From contig CAZHPN010000105.1 of NCBI GenBank assembly GCA_964534375.1, positions 1 to 20,431 on the forward strand: 20,431 bases of DNA. The letters run 5' to 3'. The notes beneath the pieces are model-generated. The model was not told where the DNA came from. It did no database searches and saw only the letters and a program-made list of their open reading frames with translations. A program made the position numbers and the translations under genes. Positions 3,065 through 15,470 of this stretch are shown piece by piece (within the stretch, counting starts at the first letter, position 1; each line of letters begins with the position of its first letter). The stretch is from an uncultured bacterium (GTDB lineage: Bacteria; Lernaellota; Lernaellaia; Lernaellales; Lernaellaceae).

Positions 3065-4957
3065 ATGACCGATAGCCCGCCTCCGAAGTTGGTCATGCCG
3101 CAAATCGAGCCGGGGATGGTGCTGGCCGGGCGCTACCGCATTTTGTCATCGGTCGGCAAAGGCGGCATGGGCCAGGTCTATGCCGGCGAGGAGGAAAGCC
3201 TCGGGATTCGCCGGCTGGTCGCGATCAAGGTTCTGCCGCCGCAAATGATGCTCGACGAAAGCCTGATGGCGCGATTCCGCGAGGAAATCCGCATCGCGGC
3301 GCAGCTCGACCATCCGCACATCGTGCCCATCTACAGTCTGGGCGAGCACCAGGGCGTCTACTTCTACGTCATGAAGCTGCTGGACGGCCAAACGGCCTTC
3401 CAGCGGCTGCGGCAGAGCGGCCCGTTCACCGAGCCCGACTTGCGCAAGATGGCGGCGCCCATCGCCCGCGCGCTGCATTACGCGCACAGCAAGGGCGTCA
3501 TTCACCGCGACATCAAGAGCAACAACATCCACCTCGGCGCCGACGGCCATCCGACGTTGATGGATTTCGGCGTCGCCCGCGGCCACGAAAGCGCCGAATT
3601 GACCTCGCCGGGCCAGATCATCGGCACCGCCGAGTGCATGGCGCCCGAACAGTGGGTCGGCCATGCCGAGCCGCGCAGCGACATCTACGGTCTCGGCGTG
3701 GTGCTCTACGAGTTGGCCGCCGGCAAGCTGCCGTGCGACAGCCGGCAGACATACGAATTGATGAAATTCCACATGGAGGTGACGCCGCCGCGCCTGCGCA
3801 TCGCCGCGCCGGGCATGTCGGCCGAACTGGAAGCGATCGTCCTCAAGTGCCTGGCGAAGGAACCGAACGACCGCTACCCCCATGCCCTGGCGCTCGCCGA
3901 AGCGCTCGAAAGCCCCTACCGCGCGCCCGATGCGGCGCCGGATGCGCCGCCGCCCGCGGTCGAACCCGCCGCGTTCACCGGCGATAGATCGCCAACGGCG
4001 ATGGAGACAGCGCGCACGATGCTGACGCCTGGCGCCGCGGTCGAATTGGTGCGGGTCGACAAGCGGCTGTGGCGCAAGTGCGTGACGGCCGACGAGGCCT
4101 ATGCCGGCGGCGAACTGGCCGAGGCGCTGCGATTGATGAAGCGCGCCGCGAAGGCGTATCCGGACAGCCGCGAGGTGAAGGAACGCGTCGAAAAATTCTC
4201 GAAGATGAAGGCACTGACCGATCAGATCATGGCGCGGGGCGACGCTGCGATGGCGGCCGCGAAACTGAAACAGGCGATCGCCGAGTACGAGAACGTCTTG
4301 CGCTGCATGCCGCTGCCGGCCGCCGCCGCGAAATTGGTCCGCGCCCGCGCGCAGGCCGAACAGGCCGACGAATTGCTTTACCGCGCGCAGCAGGCCAAAC
4401 GCGACGGCCGGCCCGGGGAGGCGCTCAAGCTCGCCGCCAGGGCCTTTCGGATGCACCAGGAAATCGACCCGCCGCACGACGGCGGTCCGCGCTCGGGCCG
4501 GCACAAGCGCCGGCCAAAAAAGAAGCGCGCGCCGATCGTCACCGGCGGCCGGGTCGCGCTGCTGCTATTCGTCGCGCTGCTCGTGGCGGCCGTCGACGGC
4601 GCCCGGCCGCTCTTGCTGCGGTTGGCCGACGCCGCCTACGACGCCAATACCGACCAAAGCCTGTTCCTGGCCGAATTCGGCGCCGAACGTTATTACGCCG
4701 CCCTGGCCCGCCTGCCCTCGCCGCCGCCGCGCGTCGCCGACCGCCTCCGCACAATCAACCGGCGCGCGAAGGCCTACTATACGGCGCGGGCTAACGAGGC
4801 CGTGCAATCCGGCGCGCTCGGCGCCGCCATCAAGTATTTGGAAAAGGCGCTGGCCCGCGACCCCGGCGACGGGAAGTTGGTCGACGCGCTGCAACTGTAC
4901 CAGGCGAAATACGCGGTGCAGCAAAGTCTTGCGACGAAACCCGGGGAAAGCGAGTGA
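3065..4957 (+). CDS. Hanks-type Ser/Thr protein kinase with TPR-like helical regions and one TM segment
   Basis: GKGGMG P-loop, VAIK, HRDIKSNN, DFG, APE and DIYGLG motifs. Then a Pro/Ala linker, TPR-like helices, basic RHKRRPKKKR patch, TM VALLLFVALLVAAV and a C-terminal TPR-like helix pair. Confidence 0.95.
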   Translation: MTDSPPPKLVMPQIEPGMVLAGRYRILSSVGKGGMGQVYAGEEESLGIRRLVAIKVLPPQMMLDESLMARFREEIRIAAQLDHPHIVPIYSLGEHQGVYFYVMKLLDGQTAFQRLRQSGPFTEPDLRKMAAPIARALHYAHSKGVIHRDIKSNNIHLGADGHPTLMDFGVARGHESAELTSPGQIIGTAECMAPEQWVGHAEPRSDIYGLGVVLYELAAGKLPCDSRQTYELMKFHMEVTPPRLRIAAPGMSAELEAIVLKCLAKEPNDRYPHALALAEALESPYRAPDAAPDAPPPAVEPAAFTGDRSPTAMETARTMLTPGAAVELVRVDKRLWRKCVTADEAYAGGELAEALRLMKRAAKAYPDSREVKERVEKFSKMKALTDQIMARGDAAMAAAKLKQAIAEYENVLRCMPLPAAAAKLVRARAQAEQADELLYRAQQAKRDGRPGEALKLAARAFRMHQEIDPPHDGGPRSGRHKRRPKKKRAPIVTGGRVALLLFVALLVAAVDGARPLLLRLADAAYDANTDQSLFLAEFGAERYYAALARLPSPPPRVADRLRTINRRAKAYYTARANEAVQSGALGAAIKYLEKALARDPGDGKLVDALQLYQAKYAVQQSLATKPGESE

Positions 4958-4960
4958 AGG

Positions 4961-5002
4961 AAAAAGGAAAAAAGAGCGGGGCCGCGTCGGTTAGCCGTTG
5001 CT
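4961..5002 (-). terminator. Possible intrinsic terminator for the 5151..6299 gene
   Basis: Imperfect GAGC..GGC/GCC..GCTC stem followed on the minus strand by TTTTTTCCTTTTT, between convergent genes. Confidence 0.4.
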
Positions 5003-5026
5003 CGCATCCCGGTTAGGGTCGGCCGA

Positions 5027-5062
5027 TTCCCATTACTCCCATATTTCTCATAATTCCCATAT
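5027..5062. repeat. Tandem 9-mer array (4 units)
   Basis: ttcccatta ctcccatat ttctcataa ttcccatat. Confidence 0.8.
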
Positions 5063-5074
5063 TTTTGTTCCAGC

Positions 5075-5146
5075 CCGTTCTCGGTTTACGGTTGCCAGTC
5101 GCCGGCGGCCGTTCGTCTTTCGCCGTTCCGCATTCGCCATTCCGCG
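5075..5146. repeat. Degenerate tandem 7-mer array
   Basis: ccgttct cggttta cggttgc cagtcgc cggcggc, then ttcgtct ttcgccg ttccgca ttcgcca ttccgcg (5112-5146). Confidence 0.6.
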
Positions 5147-5150
5147 TTGG

Positions 5151-6299
5151 TCACGAGCCGCTGTAATGCAGAATCGTGCCTGCGAGGCCGACGGCGAACA
5201 CGTCTGTGGCGGAACTGCCCCAGATGCCGTTCAATTCCAGCGTCGAACTGTTGGTCATTAACGTCCAGGCGGAGCCGTCATCGTGCAAAATGGCGCCGTT
5301 CCAACCCACGACGAAGATGTCGGACGAAGAGCTGCCCCAGACGGCGTTGAACTGTATCGCGGCCGAACTCTGCGATACCGTTATCCAGGTCGAACCGTTG
5401 TAGCGCCAAATCAGGCCGAGGTTGGTGTCCAAGTCGACGCCGACGGTGTACACGTCCGAGGCCGAACTGCCCCAAACGCCGTAAAAAATGGCGTCGGCCT
5501 TGCCGCTCTGCGACATTTCCGCCCACGCGGAACCGTTGTATTTCATGATCACGCCGAAGTCGGAAACGTCGGTGCCGACCGCGAAAGCCTCGGCGGCGGA
5601 ATTGCCCCAGACGCCGCGCAACGTGTTGGCCGTTGACGTCGACGACCACGAGGAGCCGTTGTAGCTGAAGATCGCGCCCGAGCCGACGGCGAACACTGCC
5701 GACGCCGACGAGCCCCAAACGCCGGACAACCAAACGTTCGTCGAACCGCTGTCCATCGCCTTCCACGTGGAACCGTCGTAGCCGACGATCACGCCCGCGT
5801 TGTCATAGCCGCCCACCGCAAAAACGTCCGTGGGCGAACTCCCCCAGACGCCGGCCAGCACGGTCTCCGCCGTCGTCCCGGGCTGCTGCATCACCGACCA
5901 CGCCGAGCCATCGTAGTGCACAATCGCGCCGCTCCAGCCCACCGCGAAAACGTCCGAACCGGAACTGCCCCACACGCCGTACAAGTCCGCGGTCGTGCCG
6001 CTCGTCATCGCTGGCCATTGAGTCGAACTGTCGTCGTCATCGTCATCGTCGTTGTCGTCGTTATCATCGTCGTCGCCGGGCGAGGAGTCGTCGTTGTCGT
6101 CATCATCCGGGGAGGCGTCATTGTCGTTGTCGTCATCATCCGGGGAGGCGTCATTGTCGTCGTCGTCGCCGGGCGAGGCGTCGTCGTCGATCACGCTCGC
6201 AGCGTGACTGCTGTTGGAACTGCCGCCGCACCCGATCATCATGGCGACGACCGCCAGAGCCAGGAAAGCGAGAAAGGCAAAAGAAGATATCCGGCGCAT
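5151..6299 (-). CDS. Lipoprotein with Asp-rich linker and 7 WGSS repeats (paralog of 1417..2652)
   Basis: Start reassigned to ATG at 6299 (GGGGAG SD; MRRISSFAFLAFLALAVVAMMIG-CGG lipobox). Asp-rich tract, then seven WGSS/DVFAVG/YDG repeats. 382 aa. Confidence 0.88.
   Translation of the reverse strand: MRRISSFAFLAFLALAVVAMMIGCGGSSNSSHAASVIDDDASPGDDDDNDASPDDDDNDNDASPDDDDNDDSSPGDDDDNDDNDDDDDDDSSTQWPAMTSGTTADLYGVWGSSGSDVFAVGWSGAIVHYDGSAWSVMQQPGTTAETVLAGVWGSSPTDVFAVGGYDNAGVIVGYDGSTWKAMDSGSTNVWLSGVWGSSASAVFAVGSGAIFSYNGSSWSSTSTANTLRGVWGNSAAEAFAVGTDVSDFGVIMKYNGSAWAEMSQSGKADAIFYGVWGSSASDVYTVGVDLDTNLGLIWRYNGSTWITVSQSSAAIQFNAVWGSSSSDIFVVGWNGAILHDDGSAWTLMTNSSTLELNGIWGSSATDVFAVGLAGTILHYSGS
6030..6188 (-). 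repeat. Asp-rich coding repeat (DASPDDDDN-like units)
   Basis: Duplicated gtcgtcatcatccggggaggcgtcattgtcgt blocks at about 6096-6160 within a gtc-rich tract. Confidence 0.88.
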
Positions 6300-6445
6300 C
6301 GTAGTCTCCCCGCGTACGAGTGAAGCTCTGGCGTGGGCTGCTGTCTCTGCGCGAACCTGCCGCCAGTGCGGACGCATTCCACGCCGATGCCGGCGCCGCG
6401 TCAAGGCGGTCTGGCGCGCGGACGGCGCGAGAGATGAATTTTGTC

Positions 6446-6541
6446 CACAGATTACACAGATTTCACAGATTCGGGTGGAATCACCCCGCAACGTGGCCAG
6501 AGCGAAGCGGGACGATCTGTGAAATCGGTATCGTCTGGGGA
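6446..6541. repeat. Inverted pair of tandem 9-mer arrays (CACAGATTN x3, then degenerate reverse complement x3)
   Basis: cacagatta cacagattt cacagattc (6446-6472) and atctgtgaa atcggtatc gtctgggga (6515-6541). Confidence 0.75.
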
Positions 6542-6549
6542 AGCTTGGA

Positions 6550-7134
6550 TCAATCCCCGTGTTTGGTCAGCGTGCGCTCGAACCGGCGGTCCGGAATTAG
6601 CCACGCCAGCGCCACGCCGACCAGAACGGCGATCGCCGCCCAGCGGTTGGCGAAAGCCAACGGGATCGCCGCGACGTAGGCGACGATCGACGCCTTGCCC
6701 TTCCAGTCACGCCCGAGCGCACGCGCCAGCGCCGAGTCGGCGCCGTGCAGCGGCAATAGCGCGCGCGTCAGCAGGAAGTAGGCGACGGCGGCCAGCAGTT
6801 GCACAACCGCGTACGCCGCAACCGGAATCGGCGCCGCATGGCGCTCCCCCAACCACGCGGTGACGAACGGCGTCAGCGACAGCCAGAACAGCAAGTGCAT
6901 GTTGGCCCAGAGCACGCGGCCGTTCACCTGCGCCACCGCGTGCAAGAGATGATGGTGGTTGTTCCAGTAGATCGCGATAAACGTGAAGCTGAGCAGATAA
7001 CTCAAGAACGTCGGCACGAGCGGCGCGAGATCGGCCCAATTCGTACCCGCCGGCGGCCTCAACTCAAGCACCATGATCGTGATGATGATCGCGATCACGC
7101 CGTCGCTGAATGCTTCCAATCGGTTGCGGGTCAT
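6550..7134 (-). CDS. TMEM175-family (DUF1211) potassium channel
   Basis: Signature RLEAFSDGVIAIIITIMVLEL, then YLLSF..IAIYWNNHH and LFWLSLTPF.TAW. Six TM helices, 194 aa. Confidence 0.93.
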   Translation of the reverse strand: MTRNRLEAFSDGVIAIIITIMVLELRPPAGTNWADLAPLVPTFLSYLLSFTFIAIYWNNHHHLLHAVAQVNGRVLWANMHLLFWLSLTPFVTAWLGERHAAPIPVAAYAVVQLLAAVAYFLLTRALLPLHGADSALARALGRDWKGKASIVAYVAAIPLAFANRWAAIAVLVGVALAWLIPDRRFERTLTKHGD

Positions 7135-7232
7135 CGCGTCCTCTGCGCCGCCCGGGTGAGATCGAAGTTCGCTTTCCGCTAATCAAGCCTGCGCACGCGC
7201 GCGGGCGTTGTCCAGAGTCGCTTGATCGGGGC

Positions 7233-7340
7233 CTTGGGAGTTCTGGGAATTCCGGGAGTAATGTCTGGGTTGGCGACGCCGGTCAGCAGGTTCGGGCGCT
7301 CATGATTCCCAGAATTCCCGGGATTCCCAGGATTCCCGTT
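7233..7340. repeat. Inverted pair of tandem 9-mer arrays (GGGAAT-core x3 / ATTCCC-core x4)
   Basis: cttgggagt tctgggaat tccgggagt (7233-7259) and attcccaga attcccggg attcccagg attcccgtt (7305-7340). Confidence 0.8.
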
Positions 7341-7405
7341 GCGTACGCACGCCGGCGGACTCGGAAACGCCGTGACACGGACCGAGTTCCACAGCCGCTC
7401 GCCGC

Positions 7406-8827
7406 TCAATACTTGATGAGCATCGCGGCGCCCACGCGATCTTCGGAATCCACCAGATCCGGTTGCCAGCCCGCGACCAGCGAACCGGGGCTGCCCTGGT
7501 TGCCGCCCGAAGGGGTGACGCCGCCGTGGCCCGAGAAGTACGGCACGTTTGCCGCGCGGTGGTTGTACTCCAAGCGGAAGGTGATAAACGGGCGCGGCAT
7601 GTAATCGAAGGTCAATTGCGCGTCCCACGCCTTGAATTTGTCGCCGGGGTTTTCGGGGAAATACGGCGTCCCGGAGACGGCGGTGGCGCCGTTGATCGGC
7701 GGCAGAAGCACGAGGTAGCGGCCGGGGTTCGTGATGGCGCCGCCGCCGAAGGTGACGCCGAACACGTCATGGTGGAACCAAAATCGGTTGTAGGCCATGA
7801 AGCCCAGGAAATACTGGTTCGAGCATTTGACCCCGCCGCCCGATTCGCAGCCGGCGTCCAGCGTCAGCGACACCGCGGCCTTGTCCAAGCCCCATTCCGG
7901 CTGGTCCAGGTATTTGAAACTGGCGCTGTCGTCGGTGTGCATGCGTTTGCGGCCGGGGTTGCCCAGCGTGTCGGCGCCGCCGTATTGGTTGCCGACGAGC
8001 GAGAACCAACCGGTCGGCCGCCACAAAATCTGCCCGCCCCCGCCCGGCGCCTGGTTGAACATGCCGTACGATTGCCAGCCGTCGACCAGCCACGGTTCGA
8101 TCTTCAGCGTGTCGGTCACGAAGATTTGCAGGCGCATGCCGTTGAAGAACCACGGCGTATTCGACGAAACGTAGGACGGCTGATAGGTCCAGTTGTCGAA
8201 GTTGTAGTAGCTCCAGAGGCCGATGTACGACATGAAGATGCCGGCCTGGATGTTGATGCCGTGCAGCGCGTCGATGTGGTACCCGCCGTAGCCCTCGGAG
8301 ATGTAGCGATAGGCGTCGGCGAGATTCCATTGGCCGCGGCCCGGGCTCGCGTCGTTACGGGGCGTGGTCTGCGAATACATGCCGAACTGGGTCATGATCC
8401 GCGCTTGCACGTTTTTGTAGAGGAAGTCGCCGCCGAAGCCGAGTTGCGTAAGTTGAAATTCGTTGTGCCGAAAAACCTCGCTCGACCCGCCGATGGTGTC
8501 GTCCTTCGGACGATTGAAGCTGTAATTGTAGTCCACGTCGACGCGGACCTCGCCGGTGAACGGGCCCCAGGTCAACGGCCGCTCGCTGGCGCCGGCGTTG
8601 CCGGGAACCCACGAGAAGTCAGCGAAGGCGAACGGCTCGGTCGGCGCGGCCGGCTTCTTCTCCGCGTCCGGCGCCTTTGGCGGCGCAGCGGCGTCGGCCG
8701 GCGTCGCCGGCGGCGGCGCGGCCGGCGTCGCCTGGCCTCCGGGCGCCGTTTGGGCGCTTGCCGTCGTCGCTATCGCCGGACAGCAAACCAACGCAATGCT
8801 GGTGAACAAAATGTACGCGATGCGCAT
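7406..8827 (-). CDS. Outer-membrane beta-barrel protein (putative porin, DUF1597/BBP2-like)
   Basis: GGGAGG SD, Sec signal peptide, Pro/Ala-rich linker, amphipathic beta-strands, AGIFMSYIG..SY...NW.Y..S motif, aromatic C-terminal residue (MLIKY). Confidence 0.85.
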   Translation of the reverse strand: MRIAYILFTSIALVCCPAIATTASAQTAPGGQATPAAPPPATPADAAAPPKAPDAEKKPAAPTEPFAFADFSWVPGNAGASERPLTWGPFTGEVRVDVDYNYSFNRPKDDTIGGSSEVFRHNEFQLTQLGFGGDFLYKNVQARIMTQFGMYSQTTPRNDASPGRGQWNLADAYRYISEGYGGYHIDALHGINIQAGIFMSYIGLWSYYNFDNWTYQPSYVSSNTPWFFNGMRLQIFVTDTLKIEPWLVDGWQSYGMFNQAPGGGGQILWRPTGWFSLVGNQYGGADTLGNPGRKRMHTDDSASFKYLDQPEWGLDKAAVSLTLDAGCESGGGVKCSNQYFLGFMAYNRFWFHHDVFGVTFGGGAITNPGRYLVLLPPINGATAVSGTPYFPENPGDKFKAWDAQLTFDYMPRPFITFRLEYNHRAANVPYFSGHGGVTPSGGNQGSPGSLVAGWQPDLVDSEDRVGAAMLIKY

Positions 8828-8930
8828 TTCACGCCTCCCTTTTCATTGTTCACGGCCGTCCTGGCGGAAACCAAGACGTTGACAACACCTCGGCTCTCCG
8901 TTTTTCGGCCGGGGATGCTGCTCCCTTTCA

Positions 8931-8982
8931 GATCAAGATGCCGTAAAGATGGGTGCGATGCCCGTCAAGAAAGCATCAAAAC
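8931..8982 (-). promoter_or_regulatory. Two pairs of 11-bp-spaced direct repeats (OmpR-family, KdpE-like boxes)
   Basis: Minus strand TTTTGATGC-TTTCTTGACGG-N-ATCTTTACGGC-ATCTTGATC; half-site spacing 11, 21, 11 bp, about 105-155 bp upstream of the porin start. Confidence 0.6.
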
Positions 8983-9023
8983 ATTCGGACGATTTCGGCT
9001 CGTCCGCCAGATGGGTTTTTCGC

Positions 9024-9050
9024 GCCGGGCGTCCGGCCTGGACGCCCGGC
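9024..9050. other. Perfect 11-bp GC hairpin just after the APC-PII stop codon
   Basis: GCCGGGCGTCC-GGCCT-GGACGCCCGGC. No U-tract follows on the minus (sense) strand. Confidence 0.7.
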
Positions 9051-9059
9051 TTCGGCCGG

Positions 9060-10940
9060 CTATAGCGCGTAAATCCCTCGTTCGGCGGTGCGGATGCGCA
9101 TGACGTCCATGGCGTTCATCACGTAGATCTTGCCGTCGCCGGCCTTGCCGGTGGCGAGCACATCCCGCATCATGTTCATCACCGTCGGCACGTCCCAGTC
9201 GTTGACCATGACGTCAACTCGCACCTTCGGCAGGAAGAGGTATCGCTCGCCCTCGCCGTCGGGCGATTTTCCATTCCCGTTCCCCTTCCCGTTCTGCCTC
9301 CCGAAGCCCTTGACGTTGGTCACGGTCATGCCGAGAACGAGGTTCTCCTCTTTCAACACTTCGACCAGGACATTGAGCCACTCGGGCCGAATAATGGCGG
9401 TGACCATTTTGAGGCTATAGGATTTGCTCACCGTGGTGATCACCACGTAGGCGAGCGTGGCGATGGCCCAGGCGCCGGCGATCAGGAAGCAGATGTAGGC
9501 TTCCGCCTGCGAATCGGCATTGCCCACGGAGTACAGGTACACGATCGCGACGACCATGACGACGTTGAAGAGCACGCCGAGCCCGGGGATGAGGCCGTGT
9601 TTGAGGAAGCTGAAATCAGCCCGCTTTTTGTAAGCCACGATCGTCCATACGCAGGTCAGGCCGTACAGCACGAAGGTCCCGAAGTTCGAGGCCAGGGTGA
9701 TGCCGGTCAGACCGACGACCGACCGCACGCCGATCGCGCCGATCAACGAGGTGACGATCAGCAGCGCGCCGAGCGACACGTGCGGCGTGGCGTGCGTGTG
9801 GTGGATGAAGCCCATCATGCGCGGCAGTTCGCGGTCGGCGGCCATGCCGGCGCTGACCCGCATCGCGGTGTTGATGCAGCTCAGCGTCGAACCGACGATC
9901 GCGATTGCCACCGTGACGGCCATCGAGATCATCAGCCCGAACCCGATGCCGTGCAGCAGATTGTCGCCGAGCAGTTTCGCCATGTCGCCGATCGGGGCCG
10001 AAGAGGCCGCCGCCGCCGCCATGCCGGTGGTGAGCGCGGCGCCGGCGCCGTTCACCAACTTCTCGCTGACCATCGTGCCGGCCGCGAAATATTCGAGCAG
10101 GTAGGCGAACAAGCCCTGAATCACCAGCGAGATGATAATGGCCTTGGGGATGTTCTTGCCCGGGTTTTTCGTTTCGGCGGAGAGCGCCGTCGCGCTCTCG
10201 AAGCCGACCAGAATGAGTATGGCCAGCGTCGATTGCACGAGCACGCCGTTGAAGGTGTGCGGCCGGATGATGTCCCAGGCGCCGCTGAACGCCCACGTCG
10301 CGGCGGCCTGCGGGTTGCCCAGACGGTACAGAATGGCCAGGCCGCTGAAGACGACCAACGTCATAATTTGAATGACGTTGATCCAGACGGCGGTCGTCGT
10401 CGAACCGGTGACGCCGCGATAGGCGATGTACCCGATGGCCGCGGTGATGACGACCGCGATCGCGGTCAGCGTCAGGTTGGTGAATTCCTTGCCGGTGAAT
10501 TGCGTGAAGATGTAGCCGAGCAGCGTGGCGAACATGGCGACCATGACGCCGGGGTACACCCAATAAAACAGGTGCGCCGCCCAGCCGGTCGCGAGTTTGG
10601 ACAGGCGGGCCATCGAGTTCGGCCCGGCCCGTTTGGCGCCGTTGCTGTCGAGGAACGCCTTTTCCGCGAAGTACGTGACGCTGGCGAACCCGGCTTCCGG
10701 ATAGATCTTCGCCAACTGCGAATAGGAAATTGCCGTCAGGAAGGCGACAACCAACGCCACGACGATGCCCGCCCAGATGTCGCCGGCGACCGAGGCCCCG
10801 CCGGGCGAGGTGGCGGCCGCCTGCATTTGATACGTGATCCAAAGAAAAGCGCCCGGCGCAATCAGCGCCATGGCGTTAATCGTCGCGCCGGCTACGCCCA
10901 GAGTAGGAACGACGAGCGGTGATTTTTTGGCGTCGGCCAT
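9060..10940 (-). CDS. APC-superfamily (amino acid/polyamine) permease fused to a C-terminal PII (GlnB/GlnK-like) domain
   Basis: GGAGG SD before ATG 10940, 626 aa. About 12 TM segments with APC features (TM1 NAMALIAPGA, TM6 LVGFES..ALSAETKNP, MAADRELP). The last 117 aa are PII-like: KMVTAIIRP, GMTVTNVKGFGRQ, FLPKV, TGKAGDGKIYV, RIRTAERG..AL. Confidence 0.93.
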   Translation of the reverse strand: MADAKKSPLVVPTLGVAGATINAMALIAPGAFLWITYQMQAAATSPGGASVAGDIWAGIVVALVVAFLTAISYSQLAKIYPEAGFASVTYFAEKAFLDSNGAKRAGPNSMARLSKLATGWAAHLFYWVYPGVMVAMFATLLGYIFTQFTGKEFTNLTLTAIAVVITAAIGYIAYRGVTGSTTTAVWINVIQIMTLVVFSGLAILYRLGNPQAAATWAFSGAWDIIRPHTFNGVLVQSTLAILILVGFESATALSAETKNPGKNIPKAIIISLVIQGLFAYLLEYFAAGTMVSEKLVNGAGAALTTGMAAAAASSAPIGDMAKLLGDNLLHGIGFGLMISMAVTVAIAIVGSTLSCINTAMRVSAGMAADRELPRMMGFIHHTHATPHVSLGALLIVTSLIGAIGVRSVVGLTGITLASNFGTFVLYGLTCVWTIVAYKKRADFSFLKHGLIPGLGVLFNVVMVVAIVYLYSVGNADSQAEAYICFLIAGAWAIATLAYVVITTVSKSYSLKMVTAIIRPEWLNVLVEVLKEENLVLGMTVTNVKGFGRQNGKGNGNGKSPDGEGERYLFLPKVRVDVMVNDWDVPTVMNMMRDVLATGKAGDGKIYVMNAMDVMRIRTAERGIYAL

Positions 10941-11013
10941 GGTCCATACCTCCGTTAATCGACCCATCCACGGCGATAAGCAAATGCCTATTGCCGTTTC
11001 GTCATCCAGACAA

Positions 11014-11029
11014 AGCAAGTTGCGTGCCA
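11014..11029 (-). promoter_or_regulatory. sigma54 (RpoN) -24/-12 promoter of the APC-PII gene
   Basis: Minus strand TGGCAC-GCAAC-TTGCT, an exact match to TGGCAC-N5-TTGCW, about 74 nt upstream of the ATG. Confidence 0.88.
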
Positions 11030-11436: not shown

Positions 11437-12705
11437 CTAAAATTCGCGTCGCCAGGCGAGCGGCAGCAAGGCAAATGCGGAAACGACGGCGAAGGCTACG
11501 AAAAACAGGAACAGCGCGTTCCAACCCCAGGTTTGCGAAACGTACGCCGTGACGACGCCCTGGCAGGCGCCGCCGATCGAGCCCAGGCCGTTGATGATGC
11601 CGGCGGCGGAACCGGCCGCCCGGTCGCGGCCGAGGTTTTGCGCGACCGCGCCGGAAAGCAGCGCGTCCGGCCCGAAGAGCAGGAACCCGATCAGGGCGAG
11701 CGAGCCGCCGACTGCCCACATGCCGATCGGCCCGGCGACGCGGAGCATGAGAAACGAGCCCGCGAGCGCCAGGATCACCGGCGCGACCAACCGCATGGGG
11801 TTCTTCGCGAACCAGCGGTCGGCGACGCGGCCAATGAGGACCACGCCGACGATCCCGCCGGCTTCGAAGCTCGTCGACAGGTAACCCGCGGCGCCTTCGC
11901 TGTAACCGAGGCTCCGCTTGAGAAAAAACGGCAACCAGAACAGCAGGCTGTAGCGAATGAGCTTCAACCCGAAATACGAGCCGCCGAGAATCCACAAGGC
12001 CGGCAGGCGGATCATCGCCATGAACGGCGACCGGCGCGGCGCCGCCGGCCCCGCCGCGAACGCGACATCCACGTTGTCGTCGAGCGGCGGCAGTCCGGCG
12101 TCTTGCGGTTTGTCAATCAGAAAGAGAAGCACGATCAGCCCAACGGCGCCGACCCAGCCCGCCGGCGCGAAAAACGCCGCTCGCCAGCCGAAATTCACGA
12201 GGGCGAAGGTTGCCAGCGCCGTCGCCGCCAGACCGCCGACTTGATAGTTCGTACACCAAATGCCCATGACGAAGCCGCGCGACCGCCGCGCCAGCCAGGG
12301 CGTCATCGCCTTCACACTGTTCGGCCAACCGGTCGCCTGAAAAACGCCGTTGAGCCCGAACGCGAGCGCCAGGATCCACCACGTCGAACTCAGCCCGAAG
12401 ACGACGGCGCCCGCGGCCGACGCAAACATGCCGAAGGCTAGCATCCGCCGCGCGCCAAAACGGTCGCCCAAGCCGCCGCAAAGGAATTGCCCGACGGCGT
12501 AGAGCACGAGATAGAATGTGTCGATGCCGGCCAGCGCGCCGACGCTGATGCCGAGTTCTTCGTGCAACCGGTTCTTGACCACGCTGAAATTCTTGCGGGT
12601 GAGATAATACGACGCGTAGCCGAGCCAGGTCAGCGTAAACGCCCGCGCCTGCAAGGCGCGACGCCGCGCTGCTGCTTCGTTCGCCGGTGGGGTTTGGTCC
12701 GTCAT
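11437..12705 (-). CDS. MFS transporter, organophosphate:Pi antiporter family (GlpT/UhpC-like)
   Basis: LTWLGYASYYLTRKNFS, GLGDRFGARR motif A, LNGVFQATGWP, RGFVMGIWCTNYQVGG, KLIRYSLLFWLP, AAGIINGLGSIG. 12 TM. Start at ATG 12705 or the upstream TTG at 12723. Confidence 0.93.
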   Translation of the reverse strand: MTDQTPPANEAAARRRALQARAFTLTWLGYASYYLTRKNFSVVKNRLHEELGISVGALAGIDTFYLVLYAVGQFLCGGLGDRFGARRMLAFGMFASAAGAVVFGLSSTWWILALAFGLNGVFQATGWPNSVKAMTPWLARRSRGFVMGIWCTNYQVGGLAATALATFALVNFGWRAAFFAPAGWVGAVGLIVLLFLIDKPQDAGLPPLDDNVDVAFAAGPAAPRRSPFMAMIRLPALWILGGSYFGLKLIRYSLLFWLPFFLKRSLGYSEGAAGYLSTSFEAGGIVGVVLIGRVADRWFAKNPMRLVAPVILALAGSFLMLRVAGPIGMWAVGGSLALIGFLLFGPDALLSGAVAQNLGRDRAAGSAAGIINGLGSIGGACQGVVTAYVSQTWGWNALFLFFVAFAVVSAFALLPLAWRREF

Positions 12706-12836
12706 CGCCGCCTTCGCCTGCAAGCTGGTTTTCCGCCCACGGTAAGTTCTGTTTGGCGCGAATCGGTTAGCGGAACGTCAGGGAAAGATGAAAAATTCGA
12801 CGAGCGTCCAACGCCGGCGTCCGGCGCCGCACGGCG

Positions 12837-13476: not shown

Positions 13477-15204
13477 CTAGATCCGCAAATCCTTGCGCGT
13501 TCGCTGCTTGATTTGTTGCAGCGTGATTTCGCGCTCGACCTCTTCGTTGTGCGGATTGATGTTTTGCGCTGCCAGAAAGTGGGCCATGGCGCCGCGCTCA
13601 TCTTTTTCCGCCTTGAGGATTTTGCCCATGTACAAGTGCGCCCACTCGTTATTTTCGTCGACCGTGATCGCCTTTTCCAGCCGTCGCTTGATCGGCCCCA
13701 CAATGCTGGCGTCGTACTGCGACAAACTGCAGAAATCCGCCCAGGCCCACAAGGCCGAGATTTCGCCGGACCGCGGCGCAAAGCGGGTGGCCTGGTGCAG
13801 CGTCGAAACCGCCTCGCCGTACCGCTTGTCGAGCAGGTGCTCGCGGGCGATGCGGACCAATTCCGCCGCCGCCTCCGGATTCGCCGGGCGCACGCCGTGG
13901 CGCGGCGGATCCGGCGGCGCGAATGTCGCCAGCGGCGCGGTCGGCGTCGCGGGCGCGGGCCGTGCCGGCGCAGGCGCGGGCCGGGCCTCGGCCGCGGGGG
14001 CCTTGGGCGGGACGGCGAAGGCCTGCTTCTCGACGAACCAGGCGCAGCCGAGAACGACCATCAAATGGGCATACCGAAGCCAGGCGGGGTGTTCCGCGGG
14101 CGGAATGGCGATTTTCATTTCGCCCAGGGTCTTCCCGTTCAACCGCTTCGCGTATTCGGGGAACGAGGCAGGCAATTCCAATTGGCCCCAGAATTCGTTG
14201 GCGCGATCGGCAAACAGCAGCGGATTGCCGGCGGCTTCGTGCCGGGCGAGAAAATCGATCGCCATCCGCAAGGGCATGTCCTTCAAGATCGTCTGGATCA
14301 GAAACGACGCCACGTCCACTTCGAGCGACGCCCCGCTGTCGGCGGACGAATCCGCGAGGCGGACATTGTATGTCCCCTGCGGTTTCGGATGACAGACGAA
14401 GTAACGCATTTTGGCGATTTTCTGTCGCCGCACGGCGCCTTTCAGGTCGGCCGAGCTCAGCAAGTTGAGATCGGTCAACATCTCGCCGAATCGCCGGTTC
14501 GACTTGCGCGCCTTGGCCCAAATCGCCTCGGATTCGGGCGGCGCCAGGATGCCTTCCGCGACCAGCAAGGCCCCAAGGGTGGCAGCCGGCACGAAGTTGC
14601 TGGCGATGTTCGCGACCTTGCCGCGGCCGACCTTGATCTTGACCTTCGTCTGGTTCATTTTCACGAGCAGGATGTGTTCTTCGTCGGCGCGGGACAACTG
14701 ATAAAGCAGGCTGCCGACGGTCCATTCTTTCAATTCGCCCTGCTGTGTCTCGCCGGCGTCGCTCGCGGCGGCGGCCGGTTCGGCCGGCGGCCGCGGGACC
14801 GGCCGTTTTTCCATCGGCGAGGCGCCGGGGCGCGCCGCCGACGTGCGATTCATCCACCGATTGACCGCCTCATAAAGGTCGAGCGGCGTGGTGGACGGCC
14901 GGAGGCACTCGTCCGCCGCCCCCGCCGGCGCACTTCGACTGGTCAGCAGCAGAATCGGCGTTTGCTCCAGCCGGCGCTCGGCGCGCAGCAATTCGATCAT
15001 TTTTTCGCCGTCGAACGGCGAAACGGCGCTGCCGACGATAATCACCTCGGGCGCCGCGCCGACGGCAAAATCACGCGCCATAGTGGCGTCGATGCAAACC
15101 CGCGCGCTGACCTTCATCTCGCGAAGGAACGAACGGTACTGCTCGAACAGCGTGTCGGCGCCGATGAGCAAGACTTGAATCGCCGAACCGCCGGCGTCGT
15201 TCAC
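13477..15204 (-). CDS. Multidomain signalling protein: degenerate receiver-like domain, DUF4388-like region with tandem MshEN-like motifs, C-terminal TPRs
   Basis: N-terminal receiver-like pattern (VLLIG, PEVIIVG, TPILLLTS) without the acidic residues; QQGELKEWTVGSLL; LGALLVAEGIL...RFGEMLTDLNLL; TPR-like AHLYMGKIL...A..HFLAAQNINP. Start uncertain: GTG 15204 (GGAGG SD) or ATG 15276. Confidence 0.8.
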   Translation of the reverse strand: MNDAGGSAIQVLLIGADTLFEQYRSFLREMKVSARVCIDATMARDFAVGAAPEVIIVGSAVSPFDGEKMIELLRAERRLEQTPILLLTSRSAPAGAADECLRPSTTPLDLYEAVNRWMNRTSAARPGASPMEKRPVPRPPAEPAAAASDAGETQQGELKEWTVGSLLYQLSRADEEHILLVKMNQTKVKIKVGRGKVANIASNFVPAATLGALLVAEGILAPPESEAIWAKARKSNRRFGEMLTDLNLLSSADLKGAVRRQKIAKMRYFVCHPKPQGTYNVRLADSSADSGASLEVDVASFLIQTILKDMPLRMAIDFLARHEAAGNPLLFADRANEFWGQLELPASFPEYAKRLNGKTLGEMKIAIPPAEHPAWLRYAHLMVVLGCAWFVEKQAFAVPPKAPAAEARPAPAPARPAPATPTAPLATFAPPDPPRHGVRPANPEAAAELVRIAREHLLDKRYGEAVSTLHQATRFAPRSGEISALWAWADFCSLSQYDASIVGPIKRRLEKAITVDENNEWAHLYMGKILKAEKDERGAMAHFLAAQNINPHNEEVEREITLQQIKQRTRKDLRI

Positions 15205-15470
15205 CGCTTCGCCTCCGCCTCGAATGACGAGATCACCCGAGTTGATTTCCCGCTTCCAAAGTCCGGATGCCGACATCCGCTTATCCCCTCTCGGACCGGC
15301 GACACGGCGATTTTCACGCCGTCGCACCGAATTTCGCCGCCGACGCCGGCGTCATCGCCGAGCCAACAGCGATCATTCAAAATCTGGTCTTCTACGGTTA
15401 ACATTCGCGAGCTATCCACTACGCGATCGGCACGCGCCGCCACGCGCGTCGCCGAAGCGGACATTGGCGG

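Follow-up and report, generated by a model that had tools for sequence, protein, structure and literature searches.

A gene family of uncultured bacteria encodes an APC-fold permease covalently fused to a PII signalling domain

Few signal proteins occur as widely as PII, and only a small number of transporters are known to be its targets: Amt, SbtA and two ABC importers of cyanobacteria. A typical PII protein is a free-standing polypeptide of about 112 residues that assembles into a homotrimer; its ligand sites lie between the three subunits, and its T-loop, 19 residues long in the canonical form, contains Arg47 and the modification site Tyr51 (or Ser49). Here we describe a gene on a contig of 20,431 nt (CAZHPN010000105.1, assembly GCA_964534375.1; hereafter the window) from an uncultured bacterium of the Lernaellaceae (Lernaellota), in which the PII domain is not free-standing but covalently attached to a 504-residue permease of the APC fold, whose members in most cases occur as monomers or dimers. 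PII-controlled transport by covalent fusion to an APC carrier would be a new form of PII-regulated transport, and judged from database sequences the design is widespread in uncultured bacteria. It raises the structural question of how a three-subunit sensor is coupled to a fold that usually works as a monomer or dimer.

AmtB-GlnK, whose structures 2ns1 and 2nuu are among the matches of the fused PII domain, resembles the fusion in several respects: PII is physically coupled to a membrane transporter, for a nitrogen source in AmtB and probably also in the fusion, the effector-contact residues are the same, expression may be nitrogen-regulated, and in relatives of the fusion the genes of both systems lie in the same islands. 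The two differ in that AmtB is a trimeric channel, whereas the transporter half of the fusion has the APC fold and no Ammonium_transp match, and in that GlnK docks reversibly, while the coupling in the fusion is covalent and permanent. Moreover, the fused T-loop is of variable length and has neither Arg47 nor Tyr51, and the attachment of PII through its N-terminus should turn the T-loop face off the membrane.

In the accessible passages of a review on the regulation of transporters (2023), PII control extends to AmtB/Amt1, NrtABCD, UrtABCDE and SbtA, and the use of PII is seemingly restricted to transporters that work as trimers. In the cyanobacterial systems SbtA-SbtB and NrtABCD/UrtABCDE, as these passages present them, PII-family proteins likewise switch non-Amt transporters by metabolic state, but they do so as separate proteins that act on trimeric SbtA or on the ATPase subunits of the ABC importers. 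The same passages name IIA, CBS and UspA as fused regulatory domains; a PII fusion and an APC carrier are not named in them. LacS with its IIA-like domain and the CBS and UspA fusions described there share with our protein a small C-terminal sensor as a plug-on allosteric control of a secondary carrier, and the c-di-AMP-regulated KimA (8b70) itself has an APC-superfamily fold. What distinguishes the present protein from all of these is that the sensor is PII, with ligand sites between the subunits of an oligomer; therefore, regulation should depend on the oligomeric state. The carriers AdiC, BasC, GkApcT and ApcT share its 12-helix LeuT-type fold and a G-F-E motif in transmembrane helix 6 (TM6); they differ from it by an identity of only 16-18%, by the A-P-G-A-F motif in TM1 and the invariant aromatic TM3 of our protein, and by the fused PII domain.

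An earlier, sequence-only reading of the window had stated that no characterized APC-PII fusion was known. In agreement with this, none was found in our literature searches, to which most subscription journals were out of reach, or in the passages of two reviews; the second of these, a 2023 review of prokaryotic ammonium transporters, contains neither the word "fused" nor "APC" in its accessible part.

A permease and a PII domain in one reading frame

The gene lies on the minus strand in a single stop-free open reading frame (9060..11018). Its 626 codons run without interruption from 10940 to 9063 and are followed by a TAG stop codon (9060..9062), so that translation of 10940..9060 yields 626 residues and a stop. 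We place the start at the ATG at 10940 because a Shine-Dalgarno sequence (GGAGG, 10949..10953) precedes it by 8 nt; the TTG codon at 11018 falls within the promoter box described below. Residues 1-504 (9429..10940) constitute the permease domain with its 12 transmembrane helices, as recognized by Pfam, AlphaFold2 and Foldseek. The Pfam family AA_permease_2 matches residues 43-486 (E 1.1e-20; score 74.5 bits, cut-off 27), and AA_permease scores 56.9 bits against a cut-off of 24.6. Residues 510-626 (9063..9413) constitute the PII domain, delimited by Pfam and by alignment to solved PII proteins; P-II (PF00543) matches residues 511-620, and positions 2-102 of its 102-position profile are covered (E 5.2e-18; score 65.7 bits, cut-off 25). 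The sequence-only reading had described one open reading frame with neither stop nor frameshift between the last transmembrane helix and a complete PII domain, and this description holds, with both Pfam domains encoded in one frame of 626 codons.

Direct reading of the sequence gives T V S K S Y S L K M V T A I I R P for the residues at the junction. In the AlphaFold2 model (75 sequences; pLDDT 76, pTM 0.78), helix 475-508 runs straight into strand 510-517, and the junction residues SKSYS (505-509; 9414..9428) thus form the helical end of TM12. The linker of about six residues (VSKSYS) that had been proposed is therefore correct as a sequence; as a separate, flexible element it disappears. Among homologues, the junction is conserved as K-S/T-Y-S/G/R. 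The position of the usual PII initiator is a CTC Leu codon (9413-9411), as had been noted before, and is occupied by Met, Leu, Ile, Val or Phe in the 27 fused homologues that we compared; these are the 27 of 31 fused genes whose junction was found by the search pattern. In one of them a Shine-Dalgarno-like motif precedes an internal start codon, and in the other 26 none was found. Because the initiator position is variable and such a motif is present in 1 of 27 genes, separate synthesis of the PII part is not supported.

Independent assemblies cross the junction without a single difference. A contig of 2294 nt from wetland DNA run X2 spans 8800-10877 and a contig of 420 nt from wetland DNA run X3 spans 9036-9455, the two runs stemming from two other studies (a run marked as a possible source of the DNA was excluded); a third contig, of 310 nt and from RNA library X6, spans 9282-9591. 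They cover positions 9400-9450, for which the sequence-only reading had asked for read support. The homologues, where a stop or a separate start might have been met at the junction, also speak with one voice: both Pfam domains, in a fused frame, are present in all 120 best listed database relatives (65-77% identical, 597-656 aa). An error of sequencing or assembly that joined adjacent genes, or translation of PII from an internal start such as the ATG (Met512) two codons inside the domain, has a negligible probability in view of these contigs, of the fused frame in the 120 relatives and 29 further loci, and of the variable initiator position with its near-complete lack of Shine-Dalgarno-like motifs. 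The covalent APC-PII fusion, as opposed to two genes, is hence confirmed.

Forty-one solved PII sequences match the PII domain at E up to 0.001, among them 6yc6 (E 4.8e-18) and 2eg1 (E 1e-17). In the alignment to 2eg1 and 6yc7, G547-R548-Q549 occupy PII positions 37-39, K572 occupies position 58, T597-G598-x-x-G601-D602-G603-K604 occupy positions 83-90, and R615/R617 occupy positions 101/103, all of which we take to be contacts for ATP/ADP and 2-oxoglutarate. Across 75 fused proteins, no substitution is seen at G547, K572, G598, G601-K604 or R615, while R548, Q549, T597 and R617 are each retained in 90% or more. The retention of the effector residues (GRQ at 37-39, K58, TGxxGDGK and RxR) that had been read from the sequence is thus borne out by alignment and by conservation. 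The T-loop region, from G547 to K572 (9225..9302), is four residues longer than the canonical one and rich in Gly, Asn and Asp; it has Asp at position 47 and Glu at position 51, and its pLDDT falls below 50 at residues 548-564. The sequence-only reading had remarked on neither these T-loop changes nor the promoter box and the nitrogen islands of the family described below. Scores for the GlnB equivalog NF008111 (69.8 bits against a cut-off of 202) and the GlnK equivalog NF007946 (73.3 bits against 181) stay below the respective cut-offs.

The permease half was modeled by AlphaFold2 as 12 long helices plus loop helices. AdiC, BasC, GkApcT, LAT1/2, xCT and ApcT are its best Foldseek matches (probability 1.00; TM-score 0.7-0.79 by target) at 16-18% identity, and the identity to any solved APC carrier is at most 18%; the K+ carrier KimA (8b70) and NKCC1 are among the further matches. 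With a single sequence as the query, none of the solved APC chains was matched at E up to 0.001, and a profile built from 20 members aligned only partial stretches of solved chains (best E 2.8e-6). The best NCBIfam subfamily, TIGR00909, reaches 67.9 bits against a cut-off of 556.8, with BcaP, FrlA and LAT scoring lower and no cut-off being reached. With identities this remote and scores this far below the subfamily cut-offs, the cargo cannot be read from homology. Of the designation "amino acid/amine transporter" given in the sequence-only reading, the APC family therefore stands, while the cargo class amounts to a family label. The ESM-Atlas clusters nearest to the permease are named putrescine (PotE) or dimethylamine permeases; these are automatic labels, leads at most, that we did not use as evidence.

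Several features characterize this permease subfamily. The G-F-E motif in TM6 aligns with that of CAT and LAT carriers, TM1 reads A-P-G-A-F where APC carriers usually have G-S/T-G, and TM3 contains the aromatic-rich, invariant sequence W-x-x-H-L-x-Y-W-x-Y-P-G. The permease is the more conserved half of the fusion, with a mean identity of about 70% across phyla and invariant residues in TM1, TM3, TM6, TM8 and TM10. Twelve Lys and Arg residues are found on the predicted inner loops against five on the outer loops, which places both termini inside and the PII domain in the cytoplasm.

Origin and neighborhoods of the fused family

A scan with one genome per species yielded at least 600 matched stretches, at least 590 of which encode a relative. 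We kept the best 80 loci, all from metagenome-assembled genomes (MAGs): 29 fused loci, which together with the window make a group of 30, 45 complete unfused loci, and six that are cut by contig ends. Profiles of both halves were built, and the neighboring open reading frames were clustered and named from Pfam.

In a permease tree of 75 domains, built by a quick IQ-TREE search, the 30 fused genes form one clade together with L016 (SH-aLRT 100), a gene that is cut by a contig end and for this reason was labeled unfused; the nearest outgroups are unfused genes of the PP2C type described below. In the PII tree, all 31 fused domains form a single clade (SH-aLRT 100), apart from the AmtB-linked PIIs and from the free PIIs that accompany the fusion. 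As far as these two trees tell, the fusion arose once. The members of the fused clade are labeled Planctomycetota, Omnitrophota, Spirochaetota, Nitrospirota, Fibrobacterota, Pseudomonadota, FCPU426 and "delta proteobacteria", i.e., at least seven named phyla, and the gene must therefore have moved between phyla. A monophyletic APC-PII family that reaches across this range, and that sits in nitrogen-assimilation islands, would add a new class of targets to PII control.

The islands are apparent from the neighbors. A free PII gene lies near 24 of the 30 fused loci (10 of 45 unfused ones), AmtB near 14 (7 of 45), and an NtrC-like sigma-54 activator near 13 (10 of 45); glutamine synthetase (GS) accompanies 8 of the 30 fused loci and 30 of the 45 unfused loci. 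At least one of PII, AmtB, NtrC and GS is found in 26/30 and 36/45 loci, respectively. Genes for outer-membrane barrels, mostly directly beside the permease gene, occur at 13 fused and 18 unfused loci. Directly behind the fusion, 22 of the 29 fused loci other than the window have a free PII gene, and seven do not. Twenty-one of these 22 partner PIIs form a clade of their own (SH-aLRT 96), with a conserved T-loop of canonical length that contains Tyr51. A gene order in which the fusion is embedded among such genes is that of locus L014: permease-PII, PII, AmtB, PII, AmtB, PII and GS. The dedicated second PII behind most fusions fits in general with the idea of a hetero-oligomer that the sequence-only reading had put forward.

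A different regulator accompanies the unfused sisters (loci L024-L086, e.g., L048:5977-7491), which are proteins of about 505-550 aa with 50-66% identity to the permease. They belong to the same permease subfamily and share its GS and porin neighborhood, but lack the PII domain and instead end in a short conserved tail, N-S-R/K-x-x-G-K/R-x-I-I/L-P, that from its sequence could be a phosphorylation target. A PP2C phosphatase gene follows the permease gene in all 45 unfused loci and is present in none of the 30 fused ones; a Ser/Thr kinase gene is present in 41 of the 45 unfused loci and in one fused locus, the window, whose kinase is unrelated and is encoded on the opposite strand at a distance of 4 kb. 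The same carrier is thus equipped either with a PII fusion or with the PP2C/kinase pair, each excluding the other, and since the fused loci carry PII and all unfused loci carry PP2C, the carrier is always paired with a post-translational regulator. The sister lineage amounts to a natural experiment, in which the same carrier always comes with PP2C, and usually with a kinase, as a second solution to its regulation. We found no study of the PP2C-type sisters in the literature.

Paralogs occur on both sides: locus L037 contains two fused permease-PII genes (2-808, 5965-7935), and locus L075 contains two unfused genes in tandem (4195-5673, 5971-7509). Two clusters of neighboring genes without a Pfam match, c9 and c11 (e.g., L008:489-1202 and L014:5028-5807), encode proteins of about 240-300 aa with a signal peptide and a C-terminal Phe, which by these sequence features look like small outer-membrane beta-barrels. 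The c9 genes lie directly upstream of the permease gene in four fused and four unfused loci; c11 genes are its neighbors in four fused loci (downstream in L007, upstream in the other three), and a fifth precedes the truncated L016 gene.

A search with the PII domain alone gave 283 candidates with shared words and 201 matches at E up to 0.001, and most of the 120 listed belong to the APC-PII family. Three other proteins from this search (P0121, P0140 and P0143; 438-555 aa) have a C-terminal P-II domain and no APC match in Pfam, and may be other PII fusions or fragments; P0121 contains two P-II stretches and a weak DUF3240 match.

Proposed switching mechanism and cargo

We consider it likely that the fusion protein is a carrier for a small nitrogen compound that is induced by nitrogen starvation and switched by its own PII sensor. 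In this proposal, a secondary carrier of the LeuT-like, 12-helix APC fold would be expressed from a sigma-54 promoter when nitrogen is limiting and would import a small nitrogen-bearing solute, the direction of transport being as conjectural as the cargo. A candidate for the promoter is a -24/-12 box (TGGCAC-N5-TTGC; 11015..11029, minus strand) that lies 75 nt before the ATG and matches the motif exactly; it is the only exact match in the 20,431 nt of the window, where 0.08 would be expected. A relaxed form of the box precedes the gene itself, or the barrel gene in front of it, in 16 of the 30 fused loci (background 0.024 per kb), and rpoN is present in the host genome. At the other end of the gene, about 55 nt past the stop codon, there is a terminator-like hairpin (8986..9006, minus strand), which is weak given that the region holds five such hairpins against 3.6 expected; a contig of RNA library X7 that ends at 9010 is a weak hint only of termination at this site.

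The cytoplasmic, C-terminal PII domain would sit on the rigid end of the last helix and would bind ATP or ADP and, together with Mg-ATP, 2-oxoglutarate at the clefts between PII subunits. As the effector sites lie between subunits, the domain would have to assemble with further PII subunits, contributed by the fusion itself or by free PII. The conformational change of PII would then switch transport on at high 2-oxoglutarate levels, i.e., when the cell is poor in nitrogen, and off at low levels. With PII strand 1 coming straight after TM12, the face opposite the T-loops should be nearest to the membrane, an orientation that we reasoned from the ferredoxin-like topology (strands 1 and 2 run parallel, and strand 2 is continued by the T-loop) rather than computed. 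T-loops that point away from the membrane and are not conserved argue against a plug of the GlnK type, and the switch probably does not operate in this way. The signal would more likely be passed via TM12 and the oligomer interface or, in the relatives, via the conserved T-loop of the partner PII.

A number of observations weigh against this proposal. The T-loop, which is the regulatory contact in AmtB-GlnK, varies in the fused family from shorter than canonical to up to 12 residues longer, is variable in sequence and has no conserved Tyr; with Tyr51, Ser49 and Arg47 all missing, the canonical AmtB-GlnK mechanism is not simply transferable. In the copy of the window, the PII domain (T-loop excluded) is slightly more diverged than the permease (ratio 0.89, the fifth lowest among 75, with a median of 0.98), and its end branch in the PII tree is long (0.45; median 0.14), so that the sensor of this copy may be partly relaxed or altered. 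The window also lacks the partner PII that follows the fusion in the 22 loci mentioned above, has a porin gene in its place downstream, and contains no nitrogen-assimilation neighbors over its 20 kb; the porin itself is not an orthologue of the porins at other loci (23-30% identical, E about 3e-6). The sigma-54 promoter is a motif match only. Finally, contigs from RNA libraries cover only 9010-9591 and a piece of 40 nt (10838-10877), and such contigs attest presence in RNA libraries, which can hold DNA, rather than transcription as such; their depth cannot rank expression, and the parts of the gene that they leave uncovered carry no information.

As to the cargo, we favor organic nitrogen over ammonium. 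In the favored assignment, to which we give somewhat less than an even chance, the cargo is an amino acid, a polyamine or a small amine, and PII adds nitrogen-status control to a scavenging permease. The matches to AA_permease and AA_permease_2, the exclusive presence of amino acid and polyamine carriers among the best structural matches, and the alignment of the TM6 G-F-E motif with CAT and LAT carriers all point in this direction, as does the presence of Amt, often in two or more copies, in 38 of the 40 genomes with the permease, by which ammonium uptake is already covered. The assignment is weakened by the remoteness of every solved carrier and NCBIfam subfamily, and by the tight linkage to AmtB, GlnK and GS, which is more typical of ammonium uptake; furthermore, the accessible passages of the 2023 review of transporter regulation list no PII-controlled amino acid carrier. 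Since the hosts are uncultured bacteria of wetlands and peat, the identity of the cargo bears on nitrogen scavenging in carbon-storing soils.

Ammonium or methylammonium is a possible though rather unlikely cargo. Here, an active carrier of the APC fold would work beside Amt, and strict PII control would guard against futile cycling. In its favor, the gene and its partner PII stand in series with AmtB-PII pairs and GS in relatives, as in L014, and GS follows the unfused sisters in 30 of 45 loci; APC folds for inorganic cations exist, KimA and NKCC1 being among the structural matches; and ammonium, according to the review passages cited above, is the substrate for which PII control of transporters is best known. 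Against it, our literature searches did not find an ammonium carrier of the APC family, and there is no complementarity with Amt. Were ammonium the cargo, Amt might have been expected to be absent from genomes with the carrier; the 38 of 40 genomes that have it, and the three Amt genes of the host genome, give no support to this expectation.

A more elaborate version of the ammonium idea strikes us as improbable. The family would then be a second, energy-coupled route for ammonium or methylammonium that does not involve Amt, regulated by a PII ring of fused and free partner subunits, for instance two fused subunits and one free subunit on a dimeric carrier. If true, such a mixed ring would reconcile a carrier of two subunits with a sensor of three; the need for an instant shut-off in nitrogen-poor wetland water would explain why the sensor is welded to the carrier; and a copy without a partner would borrow a GlnK subunit or force its carrier into a trimer.

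More doubtful still is a PII domain that has given up effector sensing and serves as a module for oligomerization or stability alone. The degenerate T-loop is in keeping with such a loss, and so are, in the copy of the window, the greater divergence of PII relative to the permease and two substitutions particular to this copy, Tyr in place of Phe606 and Ala in place of Gly619, at positions that hardly vary elsewhere. The contact residues for ATP/ADP and 2-oxoglutarate are nevertheless all kept, and among 75 homologues they vary little or not at all, a degree of conservation that is not expected of a purely structural module and that counts against this explanation.

We give slightly less credence again to a sensor or anchor in place of a carrier, i.e., a permease half that acts as a receptor (transceptor) or membrane anchor, while the outward-facing T-loops regulate soluble targets or sequester free PII at the membrane. 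T-loops that should point off the membrane, with PII strand 1 directly after TM12, and the dedicated free PII of the relatives would suit such a role. However, it is the permease half that is better conserved, with its invariant residues in the helices of the APC substrate path, and the fused T-loops are the least conserved part of the protein, unlike a specific interaction surface.

The copy in the window and its surroundings

In the permease tree, the closest gene to that of the window is the one of locus L007, with 77% identity in the permease part. L007 has a partner PII, and so has every further member of the seven-row clade around the window; at L007:4457-5506, between an amtB-PII pair and the fused gene, it encodes a protein in which an adenylate/guanylate cyclase domain is recognized (E 1.9e-6). 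The nearest relatives among the matches listed, at 77% identity, are MAGs labeled Desulfomonilia or delta proteobacteria. The permease part has no match in seven genomes of the same family or in nine genomes of the same class, and a single unfused homologue of the permease was found in a more distant genome; matches in the related genomes G009 and G014 proved to be ordinary amtB-glnK pairs and not permease homologues. Given the lack of a match in these 16 related genomes and the labels of the nearest relatives, the copy in the window was probably acquired horizontally.

We read this copy as one that has lost, or never received, the partner PII. The further PII genes of the host genome (94% complete) number only two; each adjoins amtB, and neither falls into the partner clade. 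The three Amt genes of this genome all lie outside the window; GlnD (PF08335) was not found in this 94% complete genome. As a partner-less and probably horizontally moved form, the copy is the simplest version of the fusion to express. Signs of a mobile element around the gene are lacking: there are no meaningful flanking repeats, the GC content is flat at about 0.63, and no insertion boundaries are definable.

The porin gene downstream of the fusion (7406..8827, minus strand) encodes an outer-membrane protein of the BBP2 (OmpL-like) family (Pfam BBP2, E 3.5e-40). We considered it as part of a traveling module; its low identity to the porins of other loci indicates that it did not travel with the fused gene, its membership in the module is uncertain, and its adjacency may be coincidence. 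Directly upstream of the permease and on the same strand is a gene for an MFS transporter (11437-12723) of the organophosphate:phosphate antiporter type (GlpT/PgtP/UhpC-like, below equivalog cut-offs); the 500-nt spacer between the two genes holds the sigma-54 box.

Other genes of the window include one for a protein of 194 aa (6550-7134, minus strand) with a match to the TMEM175 endosomal/lysosomal potassium-channel family (E 8.8e-32), one for a Ser/Thr protein kinase with C-terminal TPR repeats (3065-4957, plus strand), and one for a large protein (13477-15327, minus strand) with weak, below-cut-off matches to DUF4388 and TPR; neither the kinase nor the large protein is linked to the permease in other genomes. 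The only tRNA genes in the window, for tRNA-Tyr (GTA) and tRNA-Thr (TGT), lie at 127-318 on the minus strand. Between the TMEM175-like gene and the porin gene there is a tandem array (7304-7338) of three overlapping copies of a 9-nt unit resembling GATTCCCAG.

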